Below are positions 845-54,424 of a stretch of DNA of 64,000 bases, in pieces. Position 1 is the stretch's first letter; the number at the start of each line of letters is the position of its first letter. Below the pieces are notes generated by a model. It did not search any database, was not told the origin of the DNA, and saw nothing but the letters and a program-made list of their open reading frames with translations. This DNA comes from Camelus dromedarius (taxonomy: Eukaryota), in assembly GCF_036321535.1 (NCBI RefSeq), contig NC_087472.1:92258001-92322000 (forward strand), written 5' to 3'. Made by a program: the position numbers and the translations under genes.

Positions 845-1007
845 GGGGGAGCCTGTAGCTCAAGTGATAGAGTGCATGCTTAGCATGCATGGGATTCCGG
901 GTTCAATCCCCAGTAACTCCTCTAAAAATAAATAAACCTGATTACCTCTCTCCCCTCCTCCACCAAAATTTTTTAAGTAATTAAATAATACAATAATAAA
1001 TAAATAA
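845..1007 (+). mobile_element. tRNA-derived SINE (Vic-1-like, camelid)
   Basis: ggggga..tagctcaagtg.tagag (A box), gggttcaatcccc (B box), followed by a taaataaacctgattacctc tail and an A-rich end. Confidence 0.85.
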
Positions 1008-2519
1008 CCAATGTCAAATGTTAACCTCACAGAGCTATAAATTTAACCTCCTCAGTGGAGATGAAGATGAAATCTAGAGAAAGTACATACTCCCATGTAC
1101 ACAGTAGACAATTAAAAAAAAAACTAAATCATGATGAAACCTATTACTTGGGATTTTAATGCAGTAAATGTTAGTTACACTTCTATTCTGAACTCTCCCA
1201 GTTCTCATCATCTTATTATATTACATCGTAGGTTTTTAAAAACCCAAATAATAGTTTTAAGTATTAGTCTCAGTCCATTTAACCTTATCTATTTTCTCCA
1301 TCTCTAATCATTAGTGTGCTTTTTCCCACAGTTCTCCACAAGTTCTCACTGTCCTTCTCAATTTGGTGTCTAGGAAAGAAGAAATAAAACCTGGGGCTCC
1401 ATTAAGAATAATGCACAGAGTGAATATGATAGGAAACTGGCTTGTGGTTTTAATTTTTTCCTTAGTCTTGAATACATTAAGCTGACAGAGGTCAGTTTAT
1501 TAACAAAATACCCCATAGTGAAGTAGCAGCATGATCCATACTGTTTTTGCAATGATTCAGTTGTAGATTACATGTATTATTGTTCATTTTGAAAAATGAT
1601 AGGAATTTATTCAAACTAATATTGGAATGATATAACATCAAGTCCGGTAGGAACTTACTGCTTAATCAGCTTGGTTTTATTTATACCAAGTAATAAATCT
1701 AAATCTCTTGCCAGTAAGTAGTAACAATAAAATTATGAATATAGGAGCTATATATAAAATATTTTTGTAATTCTCTAACTAAAAGAAAAACAGATATCTA
1801 TACACACATACATGTGTATGAAAATATAGGTGTACATGGCAGTATGTTTACTTTCTCTAAAACATCTAATTAATTTACTGAACTATTTATCTCACCCAAT
1901 ATCACATAAATTTTAAATAAGTTTTAGTATTGACATTGTATACTAAGTTTAGTCTTCATATTTCAAAGAGTTTCATGGAGTGAGATACTAAATGCAATTT
2001 AGTATTGAGGTTACAGCCATCTTTATTCATTGTGTTCAAAGACTTAAATGCCATAAAATGTATTGGAATCTTTCATCAGGATTCTAGATCCTGTTACATT
2101 ATATCTTATGCTTAAAAGTTTTTTTAGATATGTAGTCATCTATCTTCACCAGGGATGCAGGATCCCTAGAGTTCAATTTCAGTCTCAGATTAAATGAGAC
2201 AGAAATGATGTAGAATGTTGGGCAATAGAGGATTCTTTAGCTTGTCCTACTAAACCTTCCACACCAGAGCTTCCATACTGAAATAGATGCAATGTTGAGT
2301 TTTCAGTTAATTTTGCTGATGTCAAAACTAAAAGTAGTTAATATAAAGTGCCAACATAATGGTTTGAGTTTCATAAATTTTATGGAAAAATCAATGCCTG
2401 TCAAACTGAAGAGCCAACATGAAGTAGAGAAAGGACGCTCTTTTTAAAAAATCTTTGATATGATAATTTTAAAATGCACTCCAAACTGTTAAGGATGGTC
2501 ATTTATGCTAAAATGGACT

Positions 2520-5048: not shown

Positions 5049-5790
5049 GGAACCCTCCTACACTGCTGGTGGGAATGCAGTTTGGTGCAGTCACTGTGGA
5101 AAACAGTATGGAGATTCCTCAAAAGACTAGGAATAGACTTACAATATGACCTAGTAAACCGCTCCTGGGCATATATCCAGAAGGAACCCTACTTCAAAAA
5201 GACACCCCTCCCCCAAAAAAAGACACCCAATGTTCATAGCAGCACTATTTACAATAGCCAAGACATGGAAACAGCCTAAATGTCCATCGACAGATGACTG
5301 GATAAAGAAGAGGTGGTATATTTATACAATGGAATACTATTCAGCCATAAAAAAGACAGCATAATGCCATTTGCAGCAACATGGTGTCCCTGAAGAATGT
5401 TATTCTAAGTGAAGCAAGCCAGAAAGAGAAAGAATATATGAGATCGCTCATATGCAGAATCTAAAAAAAAAAAAAGAACATAAATACAAAACAGAAACAG
5501 ACTCATAGACATAGAATACAAATTTGTGGTTGCAAAGGGGAAGGGGGTGGGAAAGGACAGAATAGGATTTCAAAATTTGTAGATACTGACAGGGATATGC
5601 AGAATCGATAAATAAGATTATACTGTATAGCACAGGGAAATATATATTAGATCTTGTGGTAGCTCACAGCGAAAAAAAAATGTGACAATGAACATATGCA
5701 AGTTCTTGTATAACTGAAAAATTGTGCTCCACGCTGGAATTTGACACAATATTGTAAAATGACTATAACTCAATAAAAATGTTAAAAAAA
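5049..5790 (+). mobile_element. 5'-truncated young camelid-type L1 (ORF2 C-terminus + 3' UTR)
   Basis: ORF2 C-terminal motifs [19 protein letters not shown], and the 3' UTR shared with the other copies. 17-bp TSD aaaatccaagcc(t/c)ttgg at 5034-5050 and 5787-5803. Confidence 0.93.
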
Positions 5791-8700: not shown

Positions 8701-10883
8701 AAAATGTTAGCTATATTGCTTAGGCATACATTATCAGCTAGCATAACTTTTTTAAAAAGACAAGAAAACAAATAACGTAAAAGTCATGATGGCATTACCA
8801 TAATCAGTAGAAGGGAAGGAGTTTATATTCAGAAGGGTATGCAGAGGACTTCTGTGATGCCCACAATGTTCTCTTCATCTACGTGGGTTCATTTGATGTT
8901 AAATATCTGCATATTTATATTTTATGTACTTTGTTATGTCCTATTATTAAATGAAAACAAACAAGTAAAGAAATATGGGCTGGATTATGGATTTCTTAGT
9001 AGTATTAAAAACTATACCTAAAGAGAGGTGAACAATATATTTACGGAAAAAAATATGTATGTAAAAGAATGTTAAACAGCTTTATGTAGGACTTTTTGCA
9101 TAGAATACTTAGAATGATGAAAACAGAAATATCTTCCAATAAAAATCTACTGACACTTGTCCAGAAAGGGAAGCTAATATGGTATAATATAGATTCAAGA
9201 ATAGAAAAGAACTTGATAAACTGGAAGACATGTTAAAAACAAACATGAAACAACACAGCTAGCTTTACATGTGAAACAAGGAGATAAAGACTTAATTCTA
9301 TTTTTAAAAAATGAGAATGAAGCAATCTTAACAGGAAAATTCAGTCCTTTATTTGCATCTAAAAGTTCAACTACAGGCAGGCACTTGACTTAACAATTAA
9401 TATAAGGAAGATGATTTTGACTTAAAATGCAATACAGAGCAGAAATGTAATATAGAAAAATTTTAAAAGGTTGATGTAATACACAGTAATGTTAACAAAA
9501 GTAAATAAAGTATGGGATTTGGATTGAGGCAGTTATTCCAACACTATTTTTCTACTTTTCGTGTGACAAGGTATCAATTTGCCCAATGTAAACACAATTT
9601 AAGAATGAAATATGTCCATGATTTTGAATTAATTCATTCAAGAATGCACATCTACTGAGTGGCTACTATGGGTCAGACATGCTAGGTAATCACTGAGTTT
9701 GAGAACACCAAGATGAAATGATATTATTGCTTTTGGTTTCAGTTTCCACATGTAAATAGCTTGCAAGTCATCACTCCTATTGTTACAAAAAGAAGCTAAA
9801 AATCAATAGCTTTTCTTAGACCTCTAAGAGAACTGAGGTTTTGGGGCAAAGAGCCACCCCCAAATTTGGAAACACAGATCAACCCAAAGGGTCACAGCTG
9901 AGACCTGTTTATTTGGAGAAGCCACTGGAGCCAGAAATTCCATCAGCAACCATCAGAATCAGACTCAGAAAAGACATAAATATTAAAATGATCAGACAGG
10001 GAATTTAAAATAACTATATTTAATGTCTTAAGTGCTCTAATGGAAAAATACAGATACTGTGCAAAAACAGATGGATAATTTAAACACAGAAATGGAAATT
10101 CTTAGCAAGAATCAAAAGGAAATGTAAGAAATTAAAACACTGTGACAGAAATGAAGATTGTCTTTGATGGGCACATCAGTATACTGAACATAGCCAAGTT
10201 AAGACTTAGTTACCTTAAAGATGGGTCAATAGAAGCTTCATAAATCAAAATGCAAAAAGAGAAAAGAATGAAAAAAATGTTAACATAATATTCAAGACCT
10301 GTGGATAATTTCAAAAGGCATAATACATGTATAATTATAATACTAGAAAGAGAAGAAAGAATGGACCAAAAGAAATACTTGATATAATAAAGGCCATGGA
10401 ATTTCCAAAATTAATGACAGACACCAAACAAGAAAGCTCAGAAAACACCAAGCAGGATAAGTAACAAAATTACTACATCTAGACATATTTTCAACCTGCA
10501 GAAAAACAAATAGAAAATCTTGAAAAAAAACACAGGAAATTGACATATCTATAGAGGAACAAGGGTAAGAATCAGAGTGAACCCCTTCTCAAAAAACATT
10601 CAAGAAATAAGAGAGTGAAGTGGAGTATTTAATGCAGTGAAAAATAAAGGGACTTTTGGACAAACAAGCCTGAAGGAATTTATCATCACCAGACCTTCAT
10701 TGCAAGAAATGTTAATATAAGCTATTCAGGAGGAGGAAAATGTATAGGTCAGAAACTTGAATCTACATAGAAATTAAGAGTGTCGTAGAATCAGTAAATG
10801 AGGGTAAAATAACATCTTTACCTTATTATAAATTGACCTAAAAGACAACTATTTGTCTAAAGTAATAAGAATATATTGGGTGA

Positions 10884-11835
10884 ATCCAAAAATGGGCAGA
10901 AGACCTAAACAAGCAATTCTCCAAGGAAGAAATACAAATGATCAATAGGCACATGAAAAAATGCTCAAGATCACTAATTATCAGAGAAATGCAAATCAAA
11001 ACTACAATGAGGTATCACCTCACACCAGTCAGAACGGCCATCATTCAAAAGTCCACAAATGACAAATTCTGGAGAGGCTGTGGAGAAAAGGGAACCCTCC
11101 AACACTGCTGGTGGGAATGCAGTCTGGTGTAGCCACTGTGGAAAACAGTATGGAGATTCCTCAAAAGACTAGGAATAGACTTACCATATGACCCAGGAAT
11201 CCCGCTCCTGGGCATACATCCAGAAGGAACCTTACTTCAAAATGATACCTGCACCCCAATGTTCATAGAAGCACTATTTACAATAGCCAAGACATGGAAA
11301 CAGCCTAAATGTCCATCAGCAGGTGACTGGATAAAGAAGATGTGGTATATTTATACAATGGAATATAATTCTGCCATAAAACCAACCGACAACATAACGC
11401 CATTTGCAGCAACATGGATGTCCCTGGAGAATGTCATTCTAAGTCAAGTAAGCCAGAAAGAGAAAGAAAAATACCATATGAGATCGCTCATATGTGGAAT
11501 CTTAAAAAAAGAAAAAGAACATAAACACAAAACAGAAACAGACTCATAGACATAGAATACAAACTTGTGATTGCCAAGGGGGCAGGGGGTGGGAAGGGAT
11601 AGACTGGGATTTTAAAATGTAGAATAGATAAACAAGATTATACTGCATAGCACAGGGAAATATAAACAAGATCTTGTGGTAGCTCACAGTGAAAAAAAAA
11701 ATGTGACAATGAATATATGTGTGTTCATGTATAACTGAAAAATTGTGCTCTACACTGGAATTTGACACAACATTGTAAAATGACTATAACTCAATAAAAA
11801 ATGTTAAAAATAAAATATATAAAAATAAATAAAAA
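10884..11835 (+). mobile_element. 5'-truncated young camelid-type L1 nested in an old L1
   Basis: [25 protein letters not shown] and [11 protein letters not shown] motifs with an A-rich tail. TSD aagaa(t/c)atattgggtga at 10867-10883 and 11836-11852. Confidence 0.94.
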
Positions 11836-29717: not shown

Positions 29718-30312
29718 TTTTTTAAACTGAGGTAAAAGTAACATAATACAAAATTAACCATTAACCATTTGAAAGTGCACAGTTGTAATTTTGTACATTC
29801 ATTATGTTGTGCAGCCCTCACCTTTATCTAATTCTAAGACAGTCTCATCATTCCAAAAGGAAACCCATACCTGTGAGCAATCACTCCCCATTTCCCCATC
29901 CCCACAGCCCTTGACAACCACCAATCTGCATTCTGTCTTTATAGATTTGCTTATTTGGAATACTTCACATAAAAGGAATCATACAACATGTGAACTTTTG
30001 CATCTGTTTTCTTTCACTTAGCATAACATGTTCAAGATTCATCCATGTTGTAGTATGTATCTATACTTCATTTCTTTTTTTGGCTAAACAATAGCCCATT
30101 GTATGGATATATCACATTTAGTTGATTTGCGCATAATCTGACGGACATTTGGATTTGTTTTCACATTTTGGCTATTGCAAATAATACAGCTATGAACATT
30201 CATGTACAAGAATTTCTTTGAGTCTCTTCTTTCAATAATTCTGGGTACCTATCTAGGAGTGAAAATGTTGAACCATATGGTTATTCTATGCTTAACTTCT
30301 TAACGAATCAGG
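29718..30312 (-). mobile_element. L1MB-like 3' fragment
   Basis: ttcacttagcataacatgttcaagattcatccatgttgtag..cattgtatggatatatcacatt..gctatgaacattcatgtacaag. Confidence 0.8.
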
Positions 30313-32221: not shown

Positions 32222-32990
32222 TACAATACTACTTCGCACCCATTAGGATAGCTATTATTTAAAAAAAAAAAAAAAGGAAAACTACAAGTTCTGGCAAGGA
32301 TATGAAGAAACTGGAACCATTGTGCATTGCTGGTGGGAATGTAAAATGGTGCAGCTGCTGTGGAAAACCCATTTGGTAGTTCCTCAAAAAGTTAAACACA
32401 GAATTACCATATAATCCAGCAATTCCACTCCTATGTATATATGTAAAAGAACTGAAAGTAGGTACATAAACAAATACTTGTACACCAATATTCATAATAC
32501 TGTTACTCACAAGAGCCAAAGGCAACAACTCAAATGTCCACCAAAAGATGAAAGGATAAACAAAATGCAGTAAATACATACAATAGAATATTATTTACAC
32601 TTTAAAAGGAATGAAATTTTGATACATGTTACAACATGGACGAAGCTTGAAAACATTATAAGTGAGACACAAAAGGATAAATATTGTCTGACTCCGTTTA
32701 TATAATGTACCTATAATAAGCAAGTTCATAGAGATAAAAGTAGAAGTTACCCTTGGCTGGGGGAGAGGAAGGAATGGGGAGTTATTGTTTAATGGGTAGA
32801 GTTTCTGTTTGGGATGATGAAAAATTTCTGGAAAATAGGTAGTAGTGAGCAACACTGTGAATGTAATTAATGCCACTAAATTGTACAATTAAATTTTATG
32901 CTATGTCTTTTACAACAATAAAAAAATTAAATTTTACACTTTACATGGTTGACTCTCATGGTATGTGAATTATATCTCAATAAAGCTATT
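32222..32990 (+). mobile_element. L1MB-like 3' fragment
   Basis: gcattgctggtgggaatgtaaaatggtgcagctgctgtggaaa..gaattaccatataatccagcaattccactcct..ggagttattgtttaatggg. Confidence 0.85.
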
Positions 32991-36900: not shown

Positions 36901-37459
36901 TGGACCAATTAACACCTCAACAACTATGTTTGAGACTGCTTGTTTCCTCACACCTTCAACTAACCTAGTAAGCTACAAAGTGCTTTCATCTATGACAATC
37001 TAATAGGTAAAACTACAGTATTTTATTTTAGTCTTAAATTGCAATTCTGTTATTTGTGATGTTGACTATTTTTCATATACTTAAATAGTACTTGTATTCC
37101 TTATTTTGTAGACTGTCATCTTGATTTTTTTTCCTCTTGAGTTAATGATCTGATTTTCATTAATTTGTAGGAGGCCTTTGAGGCCAAACTCTAAGATGGG
37201 AAATACTAAGAAATAATTTGAGACCAGGTAGATAAGAGCACTGCTTGCTGGGAAATCAAAAGAAAGGACCATACAAAGAGCACAGGACCAGAGGTGGTCA
37301 TCCCTTCTCAGTAAGAGTGAAATAACTTTGAGAGGAAACATGTCCTTTGAAGACTTAGTGGTGAAGGGAAAAAAAGGAACTGAATGAAGATAAGGGGCTC
37401 TAATGAAAGAAGATTGTGACATAGAATCAGAAGAAATCAGACTTTCTGAAAAAAAAATG

Positions 37460-38700
37460 ACTTAAACATAAGACAGGATACAGTGGACCTCCTGGAAGAG
37501 AATATGTGCGGAACGTTGTCTGACATACATCTCGGGGGTGTTCTCCTGGGGCAGTCTGCCCAGGCAACAGAAATGGGGGCAGGAATGGACGAATGGAACC
37601 TAACTGGGCTTGCGGACTTCTGCACAGCGAAGGAAAGCATGAGTAGGACAAGGGGACAACCTACAGAATGGGAGAAAATTTCTGCAAATGAGACCAACAA
37701 GGGCTTGATCTCCAGAGTGTATGGGTAGCTCATACGACTTAATAAGAAAAAAACAAACAACCCAATCCAACAGTGGGCAAAAGACCTAAGAAGGCAGTTC
37801 TCCAGAGAGGAAATGCAGGTGATCAATGGGCACATGAAAGAATGCTCTGTGTCACTAATTGTCAGAGGAATGCAGGTCAGAGCTGTGGTGAGGTGTCGCC
37901 TCGCACCGGTCGGGGTGGTCATCATTCAGAAGTCTACGGATGACAGGTGCTGGAAAGGCTATAGAGAGGGGGGAACCCTCCTACGCTGCTGGTGAGAGTG
38001 TGGTTTGGTGCAGCTGCTGTGGAGAACAGTATGGAGATTCCTCGGGGGACTGGGAATAGACTTACCATATGACCCAGGAATCCAACTCCTGGGCATATAT
38101 CCAGAAAGAGCCCTACTTCAAAATGACACCTGCACCCTAATGTTCATATCAGCACTATTTACAATAGCCAAGACATGGAAGCAGCCTAAATGTCCATCAA
38201 CAGATGACTGGATAAAGAAGAGGTGGTATATTTATACAATGGAATAGTCTTCAGCCATAAAAACTGACAACATAACGCCATTTGCAGCAACATGGATGTT
38301 CCTGGAGAATGTCATTCTAAGTGAAGTAAGCCAGAAAGAGAAAGAAAAATACCATATGAGATCACTTATATGTGGAATCTAAAACAAAACCAAACAAAAC
38401 ATATATACAAAACAGAAACAGACTCATAGACATGGAATACAAACTTGTGGTTGCCAAGGGGGCCGGGGGTGGGAAGGCACAGACTGGGATTTTAAAATGT
38501 AGAATAGATAAATAAGATTATACTGTATAGCACAGAGAAATATACACAAGATCTTATGGTAGCTCACAGCGAAAAAAAATTTGACAATGAATATGCATAG
38601 GTTCATGCATAACTGAAAAATTGTGCTCTACATTGGAATTTGACACAACATTGTAAAATGACTATAACTCAATAAAAAATGTTTCAAAAAATAAAATAAA
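37460..38700 (+). mobile_element. 5'-truncated young camelid-type L1 with A-to-G hypermutated 5' half
   Basis: Colinear with the copy at 10884-11835 (offset 26881). Dense A>G changes up to 38052, ordinary divergence afterwards. Probable short TSD aaaa(a/t)aaaatg at 37449-37459 and 38693-38703. Confidence 0.94.
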
Positions 38701-39139
38701 ATGTACAATTTGTTACATAATATCACCACAACCACAACTAAAAATGGCATCATAATGGCAGCAAAATAAGGTGATCTTGAAATATGAAATCAATTAAGCC
38801 ATGCAATCCCCCTACCCTAGCCCCTTCAAAGTGTCTTCTATTATTGGTTCAGGAGCGGAAAAGCCCAAAAAATGAAAATTCAGTGGATAAAACCACTGCA
38901 AAACACTTCTGCACACATACATGTCCACACTTGCACAAAGCAGAAGGAAATTTTAACTTGACACTCCAACAGGAATTTTATACTTAAATAATCAATTGCA
39001 GAATTGGAAGAAAACTATGAATCATAAACTCTTTTTAAAACTTCAAAGACAGAAGAACAAACAACATGAAGATATGAAAAGAGAGCTAGTCAAACTCAGG
39101 AGAGACAGGAAATGAACAAGAATTAAACTACAAAGTGCC

Positions 39140-54089: not shown

Positions 54090-54424
54090 TGTTTTATTTT
54101 TATACAGTTTAAAGGTCATTTTCCATTTACAGTTATTACAAAATATTGACTATATTCCCCGTGTTTTACAATACATCCTTGAGCCTGTGTTATAACCAAT
54201 GGTTTGTACCTCCCACTCTCCCTCCCCTCCCCCTGACACTGGTAACCACTAATTTGTTCCCTGTATCTATGAGTCTGCTTTTTTGTTACATTCATTAGTT
54301 CGTTGTATTTTTTAGATTCCACCTATAAGTGATGCAATACAGTATTTGTCTTTCTCTGACTGACTTAATATCACTTAGCATAATGCCCTCCAAGTCTATC
54401 CATGTTGCTGCAAATGGCAAAATT
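54090..54424 (-). mobile_element. Older artiodactyl-type L1 3' end
   Basis: ttttccatttacagttattacaaaatattgactatattcccc..ttagattccacctataagtgat..cacttagcataatgccctccaagtctatccatgttgctgcaaatggcaaaattt. Confidence 0.85.

Follow-up and report, generated by a model that had tools for sequence, protein, structure and literature searches.

The DNA described here comes from Camelus dromedarius (GCF_036321535.1, NC_087472.1:92,258,001-92,322,000, forward strand), and we refer to this whole stretch of 64,000 nt, which sits on contig C37 of a 2.3-Gb assembly, as the window. It contains a 5′-truncated L1 insertion made up of the C-terminal part of ORF2, the 3′ UTR, an AATAAA signal, and an A-rich tail, and the 5′ part of this insertion bears a dense tract of A>G changes (Table 1). 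Other L1 3′ fragments are also present in the window, at 5049-5471, 10883-11510, and 32284-32590, and on the minus strand at 30013-30200 and 54310-54418.

Table 1 Features of the L1 insertion, substitution counts by segment, and a second L1 copy elsewhere in the genome. Positions are those of the window unless a contig is named; A>G fractions are changed sites over majority-A sites.
Feature	Position	Strand	Details
5′-truncated L1 insertion	37460..38697	+	Sense strand on +; 1.24-kb L1 3′ end
Candidate left target-site duplication, AAAATG	37454-37459	+	Merges with A run, so ambiguous; read from sequence
Insert start	37459-37475	+	A>G 0/9
A>G tract (probable hyperediting)	37476..38052	+	A>G 88/255 (over 37456-38052)
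Putative editing block 1	37476..37653	+	A>G 38/84 (45%)
Low-A>G gap	37654..37772	+	A>G 6/53 (11%)
Putative editing block 2	37773..38052	+	A>G 44/106 (42%); abrupt end after 38052
3′ part of the same L1, free of the A>G cluster	38053..38697	+	A>G 4/240; normal spectrum
Spectrum, 5′ part	37456-38052		A>G 88/255, T>C 3/110, G>A 7/97, C>T 5/115, transversions 6
Spectrum, 3′ part	38053-38700		A>G 4/240, T>C 2/130, G>A 2/111, C>T 4/96, transversions 8
ORF2 C-terminal part	frame of 37459	+	3 in-frame stops inside the ORF2 part (from translation)
AATAAA signal	38671-38676	+	
A-rich tail	from 38686, to 38701	+	Followed by flank TACAATTT
Candidate right target-site duplication, AAAATG	38698-38703	+	Directly 3′ of the A-rich tail; read from sequence
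Second copy (L032), 5′-truncated L1 of ~690 nt	G000:C5:77598596-77601613, locus 853-1540	-	Match at G000:C5:77600096

The borders of the element were placed by comparison with 29 genomic L1 copies (L002-L030). In every comparison L1 homology starts at 37455-37461 and ends at ~38680-38704, and the L1 sequence of the 29 copies continues upstream of the window element's 5′ end. The 359 nt immediately upstream (37100-37458) are single-copy, with a genome search returning one candidate, the locus itself, and the 5′ junction is thus a true insertion border. The element displays the hallmarks of target-primed reverse transcription, namely a colinear L1 3′ end, an A-rich tail, and 5′ truncation relative to the 29 copies. 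The AAAATG pair at its two ends is, as read from the sequence, a plausible target-site duplication, albeit short and ambiguous; the repeat can be extended to 11 nt with 1 mismatch, an extension confounded by the A run and the tail.

Substitutions were counted at columns with at least 80% agreement among the 29 copies, all taken from the same genome, using a 1.2-kb alignment; a 3.5-kb panel alignment was dropped because it was noisy upstream and produced many apparent transversions. Polarised in this way, the excess of A>G is found on the sense strand only, which bears out the strand-wise spectrum expected by an earlier sequence-only reading of this DNA. The A>G changes of the tract differ sharply in frequency from its T>C changes (Fisher p=9e-13), the 5′ and 3′ parts of the element differ just as clearly in A>G (Fisher p=2e-24), and A>G, A>C, and A>T stand in the ratio 88:1:2 within the tract. 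At the same columns, the 29 other copies carry 0-13 A>G changes each in a leave-one-out count, compared to 88 here, and the G content of the tract is 31.3% as against 16.5-18.7% in those copies. Two other young L1 copies in the window have ordinary spectra, with A>G at 3/353 and 3/267 sites. The excess is therefore confined to one strand and one direction, as in an ADAR footprint. The clustered G>A or C>T changes of APOBEC3 hypermutation, which the sequence-only reading had named as the marks of that enzyme, are absent (G>A 7/97, C>T 5/115). One comparison copy (L018, G000:C11:55632811-55636395) has a mild A>G excess, far weaker than that of the window copy; in its 5′ part 13 A>G changes stand beside 2 T>C, 2 G>A, and 4 C>T, and a further 9 A>G lie in its 3′ part.

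The sequence-only reading had arrived at the A>G bias from a comparison within the window, and its counts were reproduced exactly. Segment 37764-38052 aligns without gaps to 10883-11171 over 289 nt, of which 222 are identical, with 47 A>G and 6 G>A changes; the remainder comprises 7 C>T, 2 A>T, and single A>C, C>A, G>T, T>C, and T>G changes. There are 117 A in the sister segment, in line with the estimate that about 40% had been converted, and the examples quoted at the time (ctcaaaagacta>ctcgggggactg and caaatcaaaactacaatg>caggtcagagctgtggtg) are found in the sequence. At those sites that it covers, a third copy (5049 onward) has A, as had been stated. The adjoining segment, which has no partner in the window and had been suspected of the same bias on account of its G runs, is also rich in A>G when set against the 29 copies, with 44/143 A sites changed in 37460-37763 and 44/112 in 37764-38052. 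The span proposed for the feature (37460..38052) does contain the A>G cluster, but the changes themselves run from 37476 to 38052, and the same L1 continues beyond them, free of the cluster, to ~38697.

Apart from A>G, the two parts of the element have diverged to a similar degree, at 21/577 sites in the 5′ part and 16/577 in the 3′ part, indicating that they form one element whose halves are equally old. When all substitutions are counted, the 3′ part differs at 20/577 sites, and the element lies ~3.5% from the majority of its relatives. Among the CA dinucleotides of the tract, CG has taken the place of 13 and TG of just 2; most CpGs made by the A>G changes survive, consistent with an insertion that is fairly young. 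The changes heavily recode ORF2, so that MQIKT(T/M)... in two other copies becomes MQVRAVVRCRLAPVGVVIIQKSTD in the window copy, and the 3 in-frame stops of the ORF2 part are of types that A>G cannot create, in an element that had been truncated anyway.

Within the tract, the A>G changes fall into two dense blocks, and the gap between them (37654-37772) differs from both (Fisher p=9e-6). The 3′ border is abrupt, with 7/17 A sites changed in 38006-38055 and 0/15 in the following 50 nt. Dense clustering with defined borders is likewise found in ADAR footprints, and here it takes the form of two blocks set against 4/240 changed sites downstream. The promiscuous editing of long, perfect double-stranded RNA reaches levels like the 42-45% observed in the blocks, with a ceiling at about half of the adenosines. 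The low-A>G gap may mark an interruption in a former duplex, and the unchanged first 17 nt of the insert (37459-37475) may reflect an end effect of ADAR or the end of the duplex.

The bases next to the changed sites are also informative. By 5′ neighbour, the changed fraction is 18/35 after U (0.51), 52/117 after A (0.44), 15/59 after C (0.25), and 3/41 after G (0.07), and the difference between G and non-G neighbours is pronounced (p=2e-5). This preference matches the ADAR motif, and the available part of a study of hyper-edited RNA describes G as likewise depleted at the base just upstream (PMC4365171). On the 3′ side, where ADAR would be expected to favour G, this base has the highest changed fraction (18/40), but only as a non-significant trend (4x2 test p=0.40), which counts against the ADAR reading.

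The G state is present in DNA data independent of the assembly. Each of 14 sequencing runs from 6 studies (2015-2025), all under one organism label, contains 0.90-0.94 of 97 sampled exact 31-mers from 37250-38250. The A>G tract, in which G sites are spaced ~6.5 nt apart, makes up 58% of this segment, and an A-state allele would give at most ~0.4 of the 31-mers; the data sets must therefore contain the G state. One of the 14 runs may be the assembly's own sample, and the others are independent. Judged by exact 31-mer presence in these runs, the G state is not an assembly artefact. Six RNA-seq runs (X15-X20), with reproductive-system and other labels, contain 6-12% of the 31-mers of 37250-38250 and give no evidence of expression.

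Taken together, these features lead us to conclude, with a probability of roughly 85%, that the locus preserves, as a germline fossil, an L1 RNA that had undergone ADAR hyperediting and was then retrotransposed. The conclusion builds on what is directly observed, namely the strand-specific A>G, the neighbour bias, the sharp borders, the privacy of the changes to this copy (described below), their presence in DNA data, and the hallmarks of retrotransposition. The sequence-only reading, in which a hyperedited L1 RNA was reverse-transcribed and integrated in the germline, is thereby supported. Given that the changes lie on the strand that bears the poly(A) tail, it is the sense RNA that was edited, before reverse transcription.

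From these observations we infer which enzyme acted, what formed the second strand of the duplex, in which tissue this took place (germline or early embryo), and where ORF2p came from. A sense-strand L1 RNA would have been double-stranded over at least ~580 nt of the ORF2 3′ region, its partner being either a complementary RNA or an L1 segment in inverted orientation that is not preserved here. Within two duplex blocks, ADAR would have deaminated ~45% of the adenosines, ADAR1 being the most likely enzyme since long duplexes are what it edits promiscuously, and the 3′ terminal 650 nt would have been spared by lying outside the duplex. The edited, polyadenylated RNA would then have served as the template for L1 reverse transcriptase at an A-rich genomic target, through target-primed reverse transcription, with inosine read as G by the reverse transcriptase. 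The ORF2p needed for this step may, as the sequence-only reading proposed, have been produced ahead of the editing or supplied in trans. The resulting cDNA, 5′-truncated at 37459/60, would have been dead on arrival and would have become fixed in the germline. Our search for the duplex partner returned no internal inverted repeat in the insert and no inverted match to the tract in the 64-kb window, where the best minus-strand matches to 37459-38052 are 12-23 nt long with E >= 0.11. Neither a progenitor nor a sibling copy was found among the best 40 of 8732 genome candidates for the half free of the A>G cluster, of which the closest is 93% identical.

An origin of the changes at the level of DNA or of a polymerase appears improbable by comparison. 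Such an explanation would invoke a Pol eta-like polymerase, adenine deamination of single-stranded cDNA, or misincorporation from an altered dNTP pool (dC opposite rA). The preference of the changed sites for A or T (W) as the 5′ neighbour resembles the WA hotspot of Pol eta, and the tract occupies the insert's 5′ end, which corresponds to the last-made and transiently single-stranded portion of the first-strand cDNA. However, Pol eta also produces many transversions, and the near-pure transitions of the tract (88:1:2) argue against an error-prone polymerase. Chemical deamination of a single strand would favour C over A, yet C>T and G>A are no more frequent than listed in Table 1, and had dA been deaminated in minus-strand cDNA, the plus strand would show T>C, a change seen at 3/110 sites. 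An effect of the dNTP pool is at odds with the abrupt stop at 38052 and with a gap at 11% between blocks at 42-45%. We know of no natural mammalian DNA adenine deaminase.

To look for further copies bearing the same Gs, we searched the genome with five signature strings of 20-30 nt from the tract, allowing up to 3 mismatches. Three of the five led to no other L1 with the changes: one had 0 other matches in the genome, one had 3 other matches, of which 0 were an L1 at the site, and one had 58 other matches (19 in reversed controls), of which 29/58 were fetched and examined, with a homologous L1 site in 0/29. The sole other match of a fourth string (L069) is an old L1 whose spectrum is symmetric (A>G 10-17 and T>C 8-16, counted pairwise) and was rejected. 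The fifth string, around CTCGGGGGACT, had 2 other matches with 1 mismatch; one of them (L033) has no L1 at the site and was set aside, and the other is the L1 copy L032.

L032 is, on the basis of its sequence, a second and independent L1 of ADAR-like type that appears more lightly edited than the window copy. In its 5′ 400 nt we counted A>G at 23/155 and T>C at 1/79 sites, together with 3 G>A and 2 C>T, and in its last 290 nt A>G at 1/110, the two parts differing at p=4e-5. Its changed fraction by 5′ neighbour (U 11/30, A 9/54, C 3/36, G 0/30) follows the same order as in the window copy, and on the 3′ side G shows no enrichment (1/27). The best other genomic match to L032 is 91% identical, and a 43-nt string that spans 8 of its changes occurs nowhere else in the genome. 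Where the two copies overlap, over 40 nt, 4 changed sites are common and 5 other sites differ, and the changes of L032 run on where those of the window copy stop, reaching a border at ~38410 in window coordinates; these different sites and different extents indicate that L032 represents an independent event. The A>G tract starts 17 nt inside the insert's 5′ border in the window copy and 11 nt inside it in L032.

Searches with two short L032 strings, at up to 1 mismatch, returned a further 83 and 41 matches, most of which have 2 of 3 G states; at one short site, for example, 15 copies have an identical 2-of-3 G state. In the only exact match to a short string (L070), 27 A>G changes are accompanied by 54 other substitutions; this L1 is old and diverged, and we do not regard it as hyperedited. 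Because short G states of this kind are common in other copies, single G states can be subfamily variants, and hence only dense, asymmetric clusters count as evidence. On this standard, hyperedited L1 copies look rare in the genome, with 2 found among at least 7,000 copies covering the region, a number estimated from the candidates of the genome searches. The suggestion in the sequence-only reading that such copies might be common in this lineage is accordingly not borne out by the nine signature-string searches, which produced one further example. In the course of these searches we also noted six L1 copies with an identical 25-nt variant string within one 760-kb stretch of the window's contig (G000:C37:73076539-73834928), which suggests a locally amplified segment.

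With the second copy in hand, a variant of the main explanation can be considered, in which ADAR editing is still required. Reverse transcription would have begun on an ordinary L1 RNA and then jumped, at ~38052, to a wholly hyperedited L1 RNA. L1 reverse transcriptase can switch templates, and the sharp border (7/17 and then 0/15 A sites) fits a switch point. We nevertheless give this chimera only a slight chance, since the divergence outside A>G is alike in the two halves and the join is colinear and in register. Moreover, the layout of L032, with its border at ~38410, would need a second, independent in-register switch, and the internal low-A>G gap fits an interrupted duplex better than a uniformly edited molecule.

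That the Gs were simply inherited, with the tract belonging to a G-rich L1 subfamily or to a duplicated copy, is very unlikely. The sequence-only reading had named Gs shared among many copies as the finding that would refute per-copy editing; at two short sites some G states of L032 are indeed common to other L1 copies, as described above. Against this, the Gs of the tract are private to the window copy. The best non-self match to 37460-38052 is 80% identical (best 40 of 6728 genome candidates), whereas the half free of the cluster reaches 91-93% identity to other copies (best 40 of 8732 candidates), a difference that corresponds to the 88 changes. In addition, 4/5 signature strings are without another edited L1 and the fifth finds only L032, whose other changes differ, and the 29 best-matching copies read A at >=80% at all 88 sites, although this last point follows by construction of the count. 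Shared diagnostic bases, as would define a distinct L1 subfamily, are therefore lacking among the copies compared.

An artefact of assembly, polishing, or sequencing, the other concern raised by the sequence-only reading, has a comparably minute probability. The support from the runs stands at the level of 31-mers rather than single bases, which leaves this explanation some room, but 0.90-0.94 of the sampled 31-mers recur in 14 runs from 6 studies, and the changes follow a biological neighbour motif. Finally, conversion after insertion, in which the locus's own transcript was edited and copied back by RNA-templated repair, predicts the same spectrum and has nothing direct in its favour, and we dismiss it as scarcely credible given that the window holds no inverted partner for 37459-38052, that the process is far rarer than retrotransposition, and that the closeness of the tract to the insert's 5′ end in both copies (within 17 nt, and 11 nt in L032) suggests a link to the insertion event.

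Under the preferred reading of an ADAR-edited L1 RNA, the locus constitutes direct sequence evidence that L1 sense RNA can be drawn into a long duplex in cells feeding into the germline, that ~45% of its adenosines can be deaminated, and that the edited RNA still completes insertion, introducing ~90 point mutations in one step. These points bear on both L1 and ADAR biology. The locus also supplies a search image, consisting of strand-coordinated A>G, depletion of G at -1, and an unedited 3′ end, with which such events can be counted across mammalian genomes.

A broader possibility, which we put forward tentatively and consider rather less likely than its negation, is that ADAR hyperediting of L1 RNA recurs in vivo, whether in the germline or in the early embryo, and has a mechanistic link to 5′ truncation. 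It is prompted by the layout of both copies, in which the A>G tract extends to within 11-17 nt of the 5′ end and the 3′ end is clean. Such a layout could arise if inosine-rich duplex RNA were cleaved or if L1 reverse transcriptase stalled on it, and activities of the Tudor-SN or EndoV type are possible cleavers of inosine-rich RNA. If true, hyperedited templates would yield only short, dead-on-arrival insertions, and the fossils would record in heritable form both the places at which sense and antisense L1 strands had paired and an arm of L1 control that depends on editing and has been missed by cell-culture assays.

Studies in cell culture provide the evidence from the literature that counts against an ADAR explanation. 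In the portions of these papers available to us, ADAR1 and ADAR2 restrict L1 and bind the L1 RNP, no A-to-I change was detected in the sequenced parts of L1 RNA, and the mechanism is deemed editing-independent (PMC5224506, PMC8677026). Compared to these studies, the window copy indicates that L1 RNA can be heavily edited in vivo and that editing does not always prevent insertion. The accessible part of a 2016 review describes the mutational role of ADAR on retrotransposons as "not yet determined" but "logical to assume" (PMC4982230). Our literature search, which covered papers outside subscription, did not turn up any description of a genomic L1 copy hypermutated in the ADAR manner.

Related phenomena are known in transcriptomes and in exogenous retroviruses. 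Hyper-edited clusters in transcriptomes are dense in A-to-G and are associated with long double-stranded RNA from repeats, according to the accessible text of Porath et al. 2014 (PMC4365171), and the window copy resembles them in its dense A-to-G and its depletion of G at -1. Those clusters are transient RNA-DNA differences, whereas the window copy has the G state in genomic DNA and no inverted partner nearby. A>G hypermutation of avian retroviruses has been described for RAV-1 (Felder et al. 1994) and ALV (Hajjar & Linial 1995), both as cited in the part of PMC8586724 available to us. Like the window copy, these proviruses represent ADAR-hyperedited retroelement RNA that was reverse-transcribed into DNA with clustered A>G. 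The RAV-1 and ALV cases, however, concern exogenous viruses in infected cells, with cytoplasmic reverse transcription and an integrase, while the window copy is an endogenous LINE-1 element that was inserted by target-primed reverse transcription and is inherited through the germline.

A further close parallel is provided by the APOBEC3-hypermutated retroelement fossils, which Carmi and colleagues are said to have described in 2011. In both cases the hypermutation produced by an editing enzyme has been frozen in the germline by integration of the mutated element, and in both it is detected as strand-coordinated clusters of unidirectional mismatches relative to other copies or a consensus. In the APOBEC3 fossils, a DNA cytidine deaminase acts on minus-strand cDNA and leaves plus-strand G>A changes, chiefly in LTR elements. 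The window copy differs from them in carrying sense-strand A>G with the ADAR motif, in deriving from an RNA edited before reverse transcription, and in being a non-LTR L1. Clusters of G>A in endogenous retroviruses and LTR elements were surveyed by Knisbacher & Levanon 2016, and in the accessible portion of that paper A-to-G figures only as the opposite direction, which the pipeline filtered out (PMC4866542). Deaminase-hypermutated retroelement fossils are thus a known kind, and what is new here is their ADAR-type counterpart.
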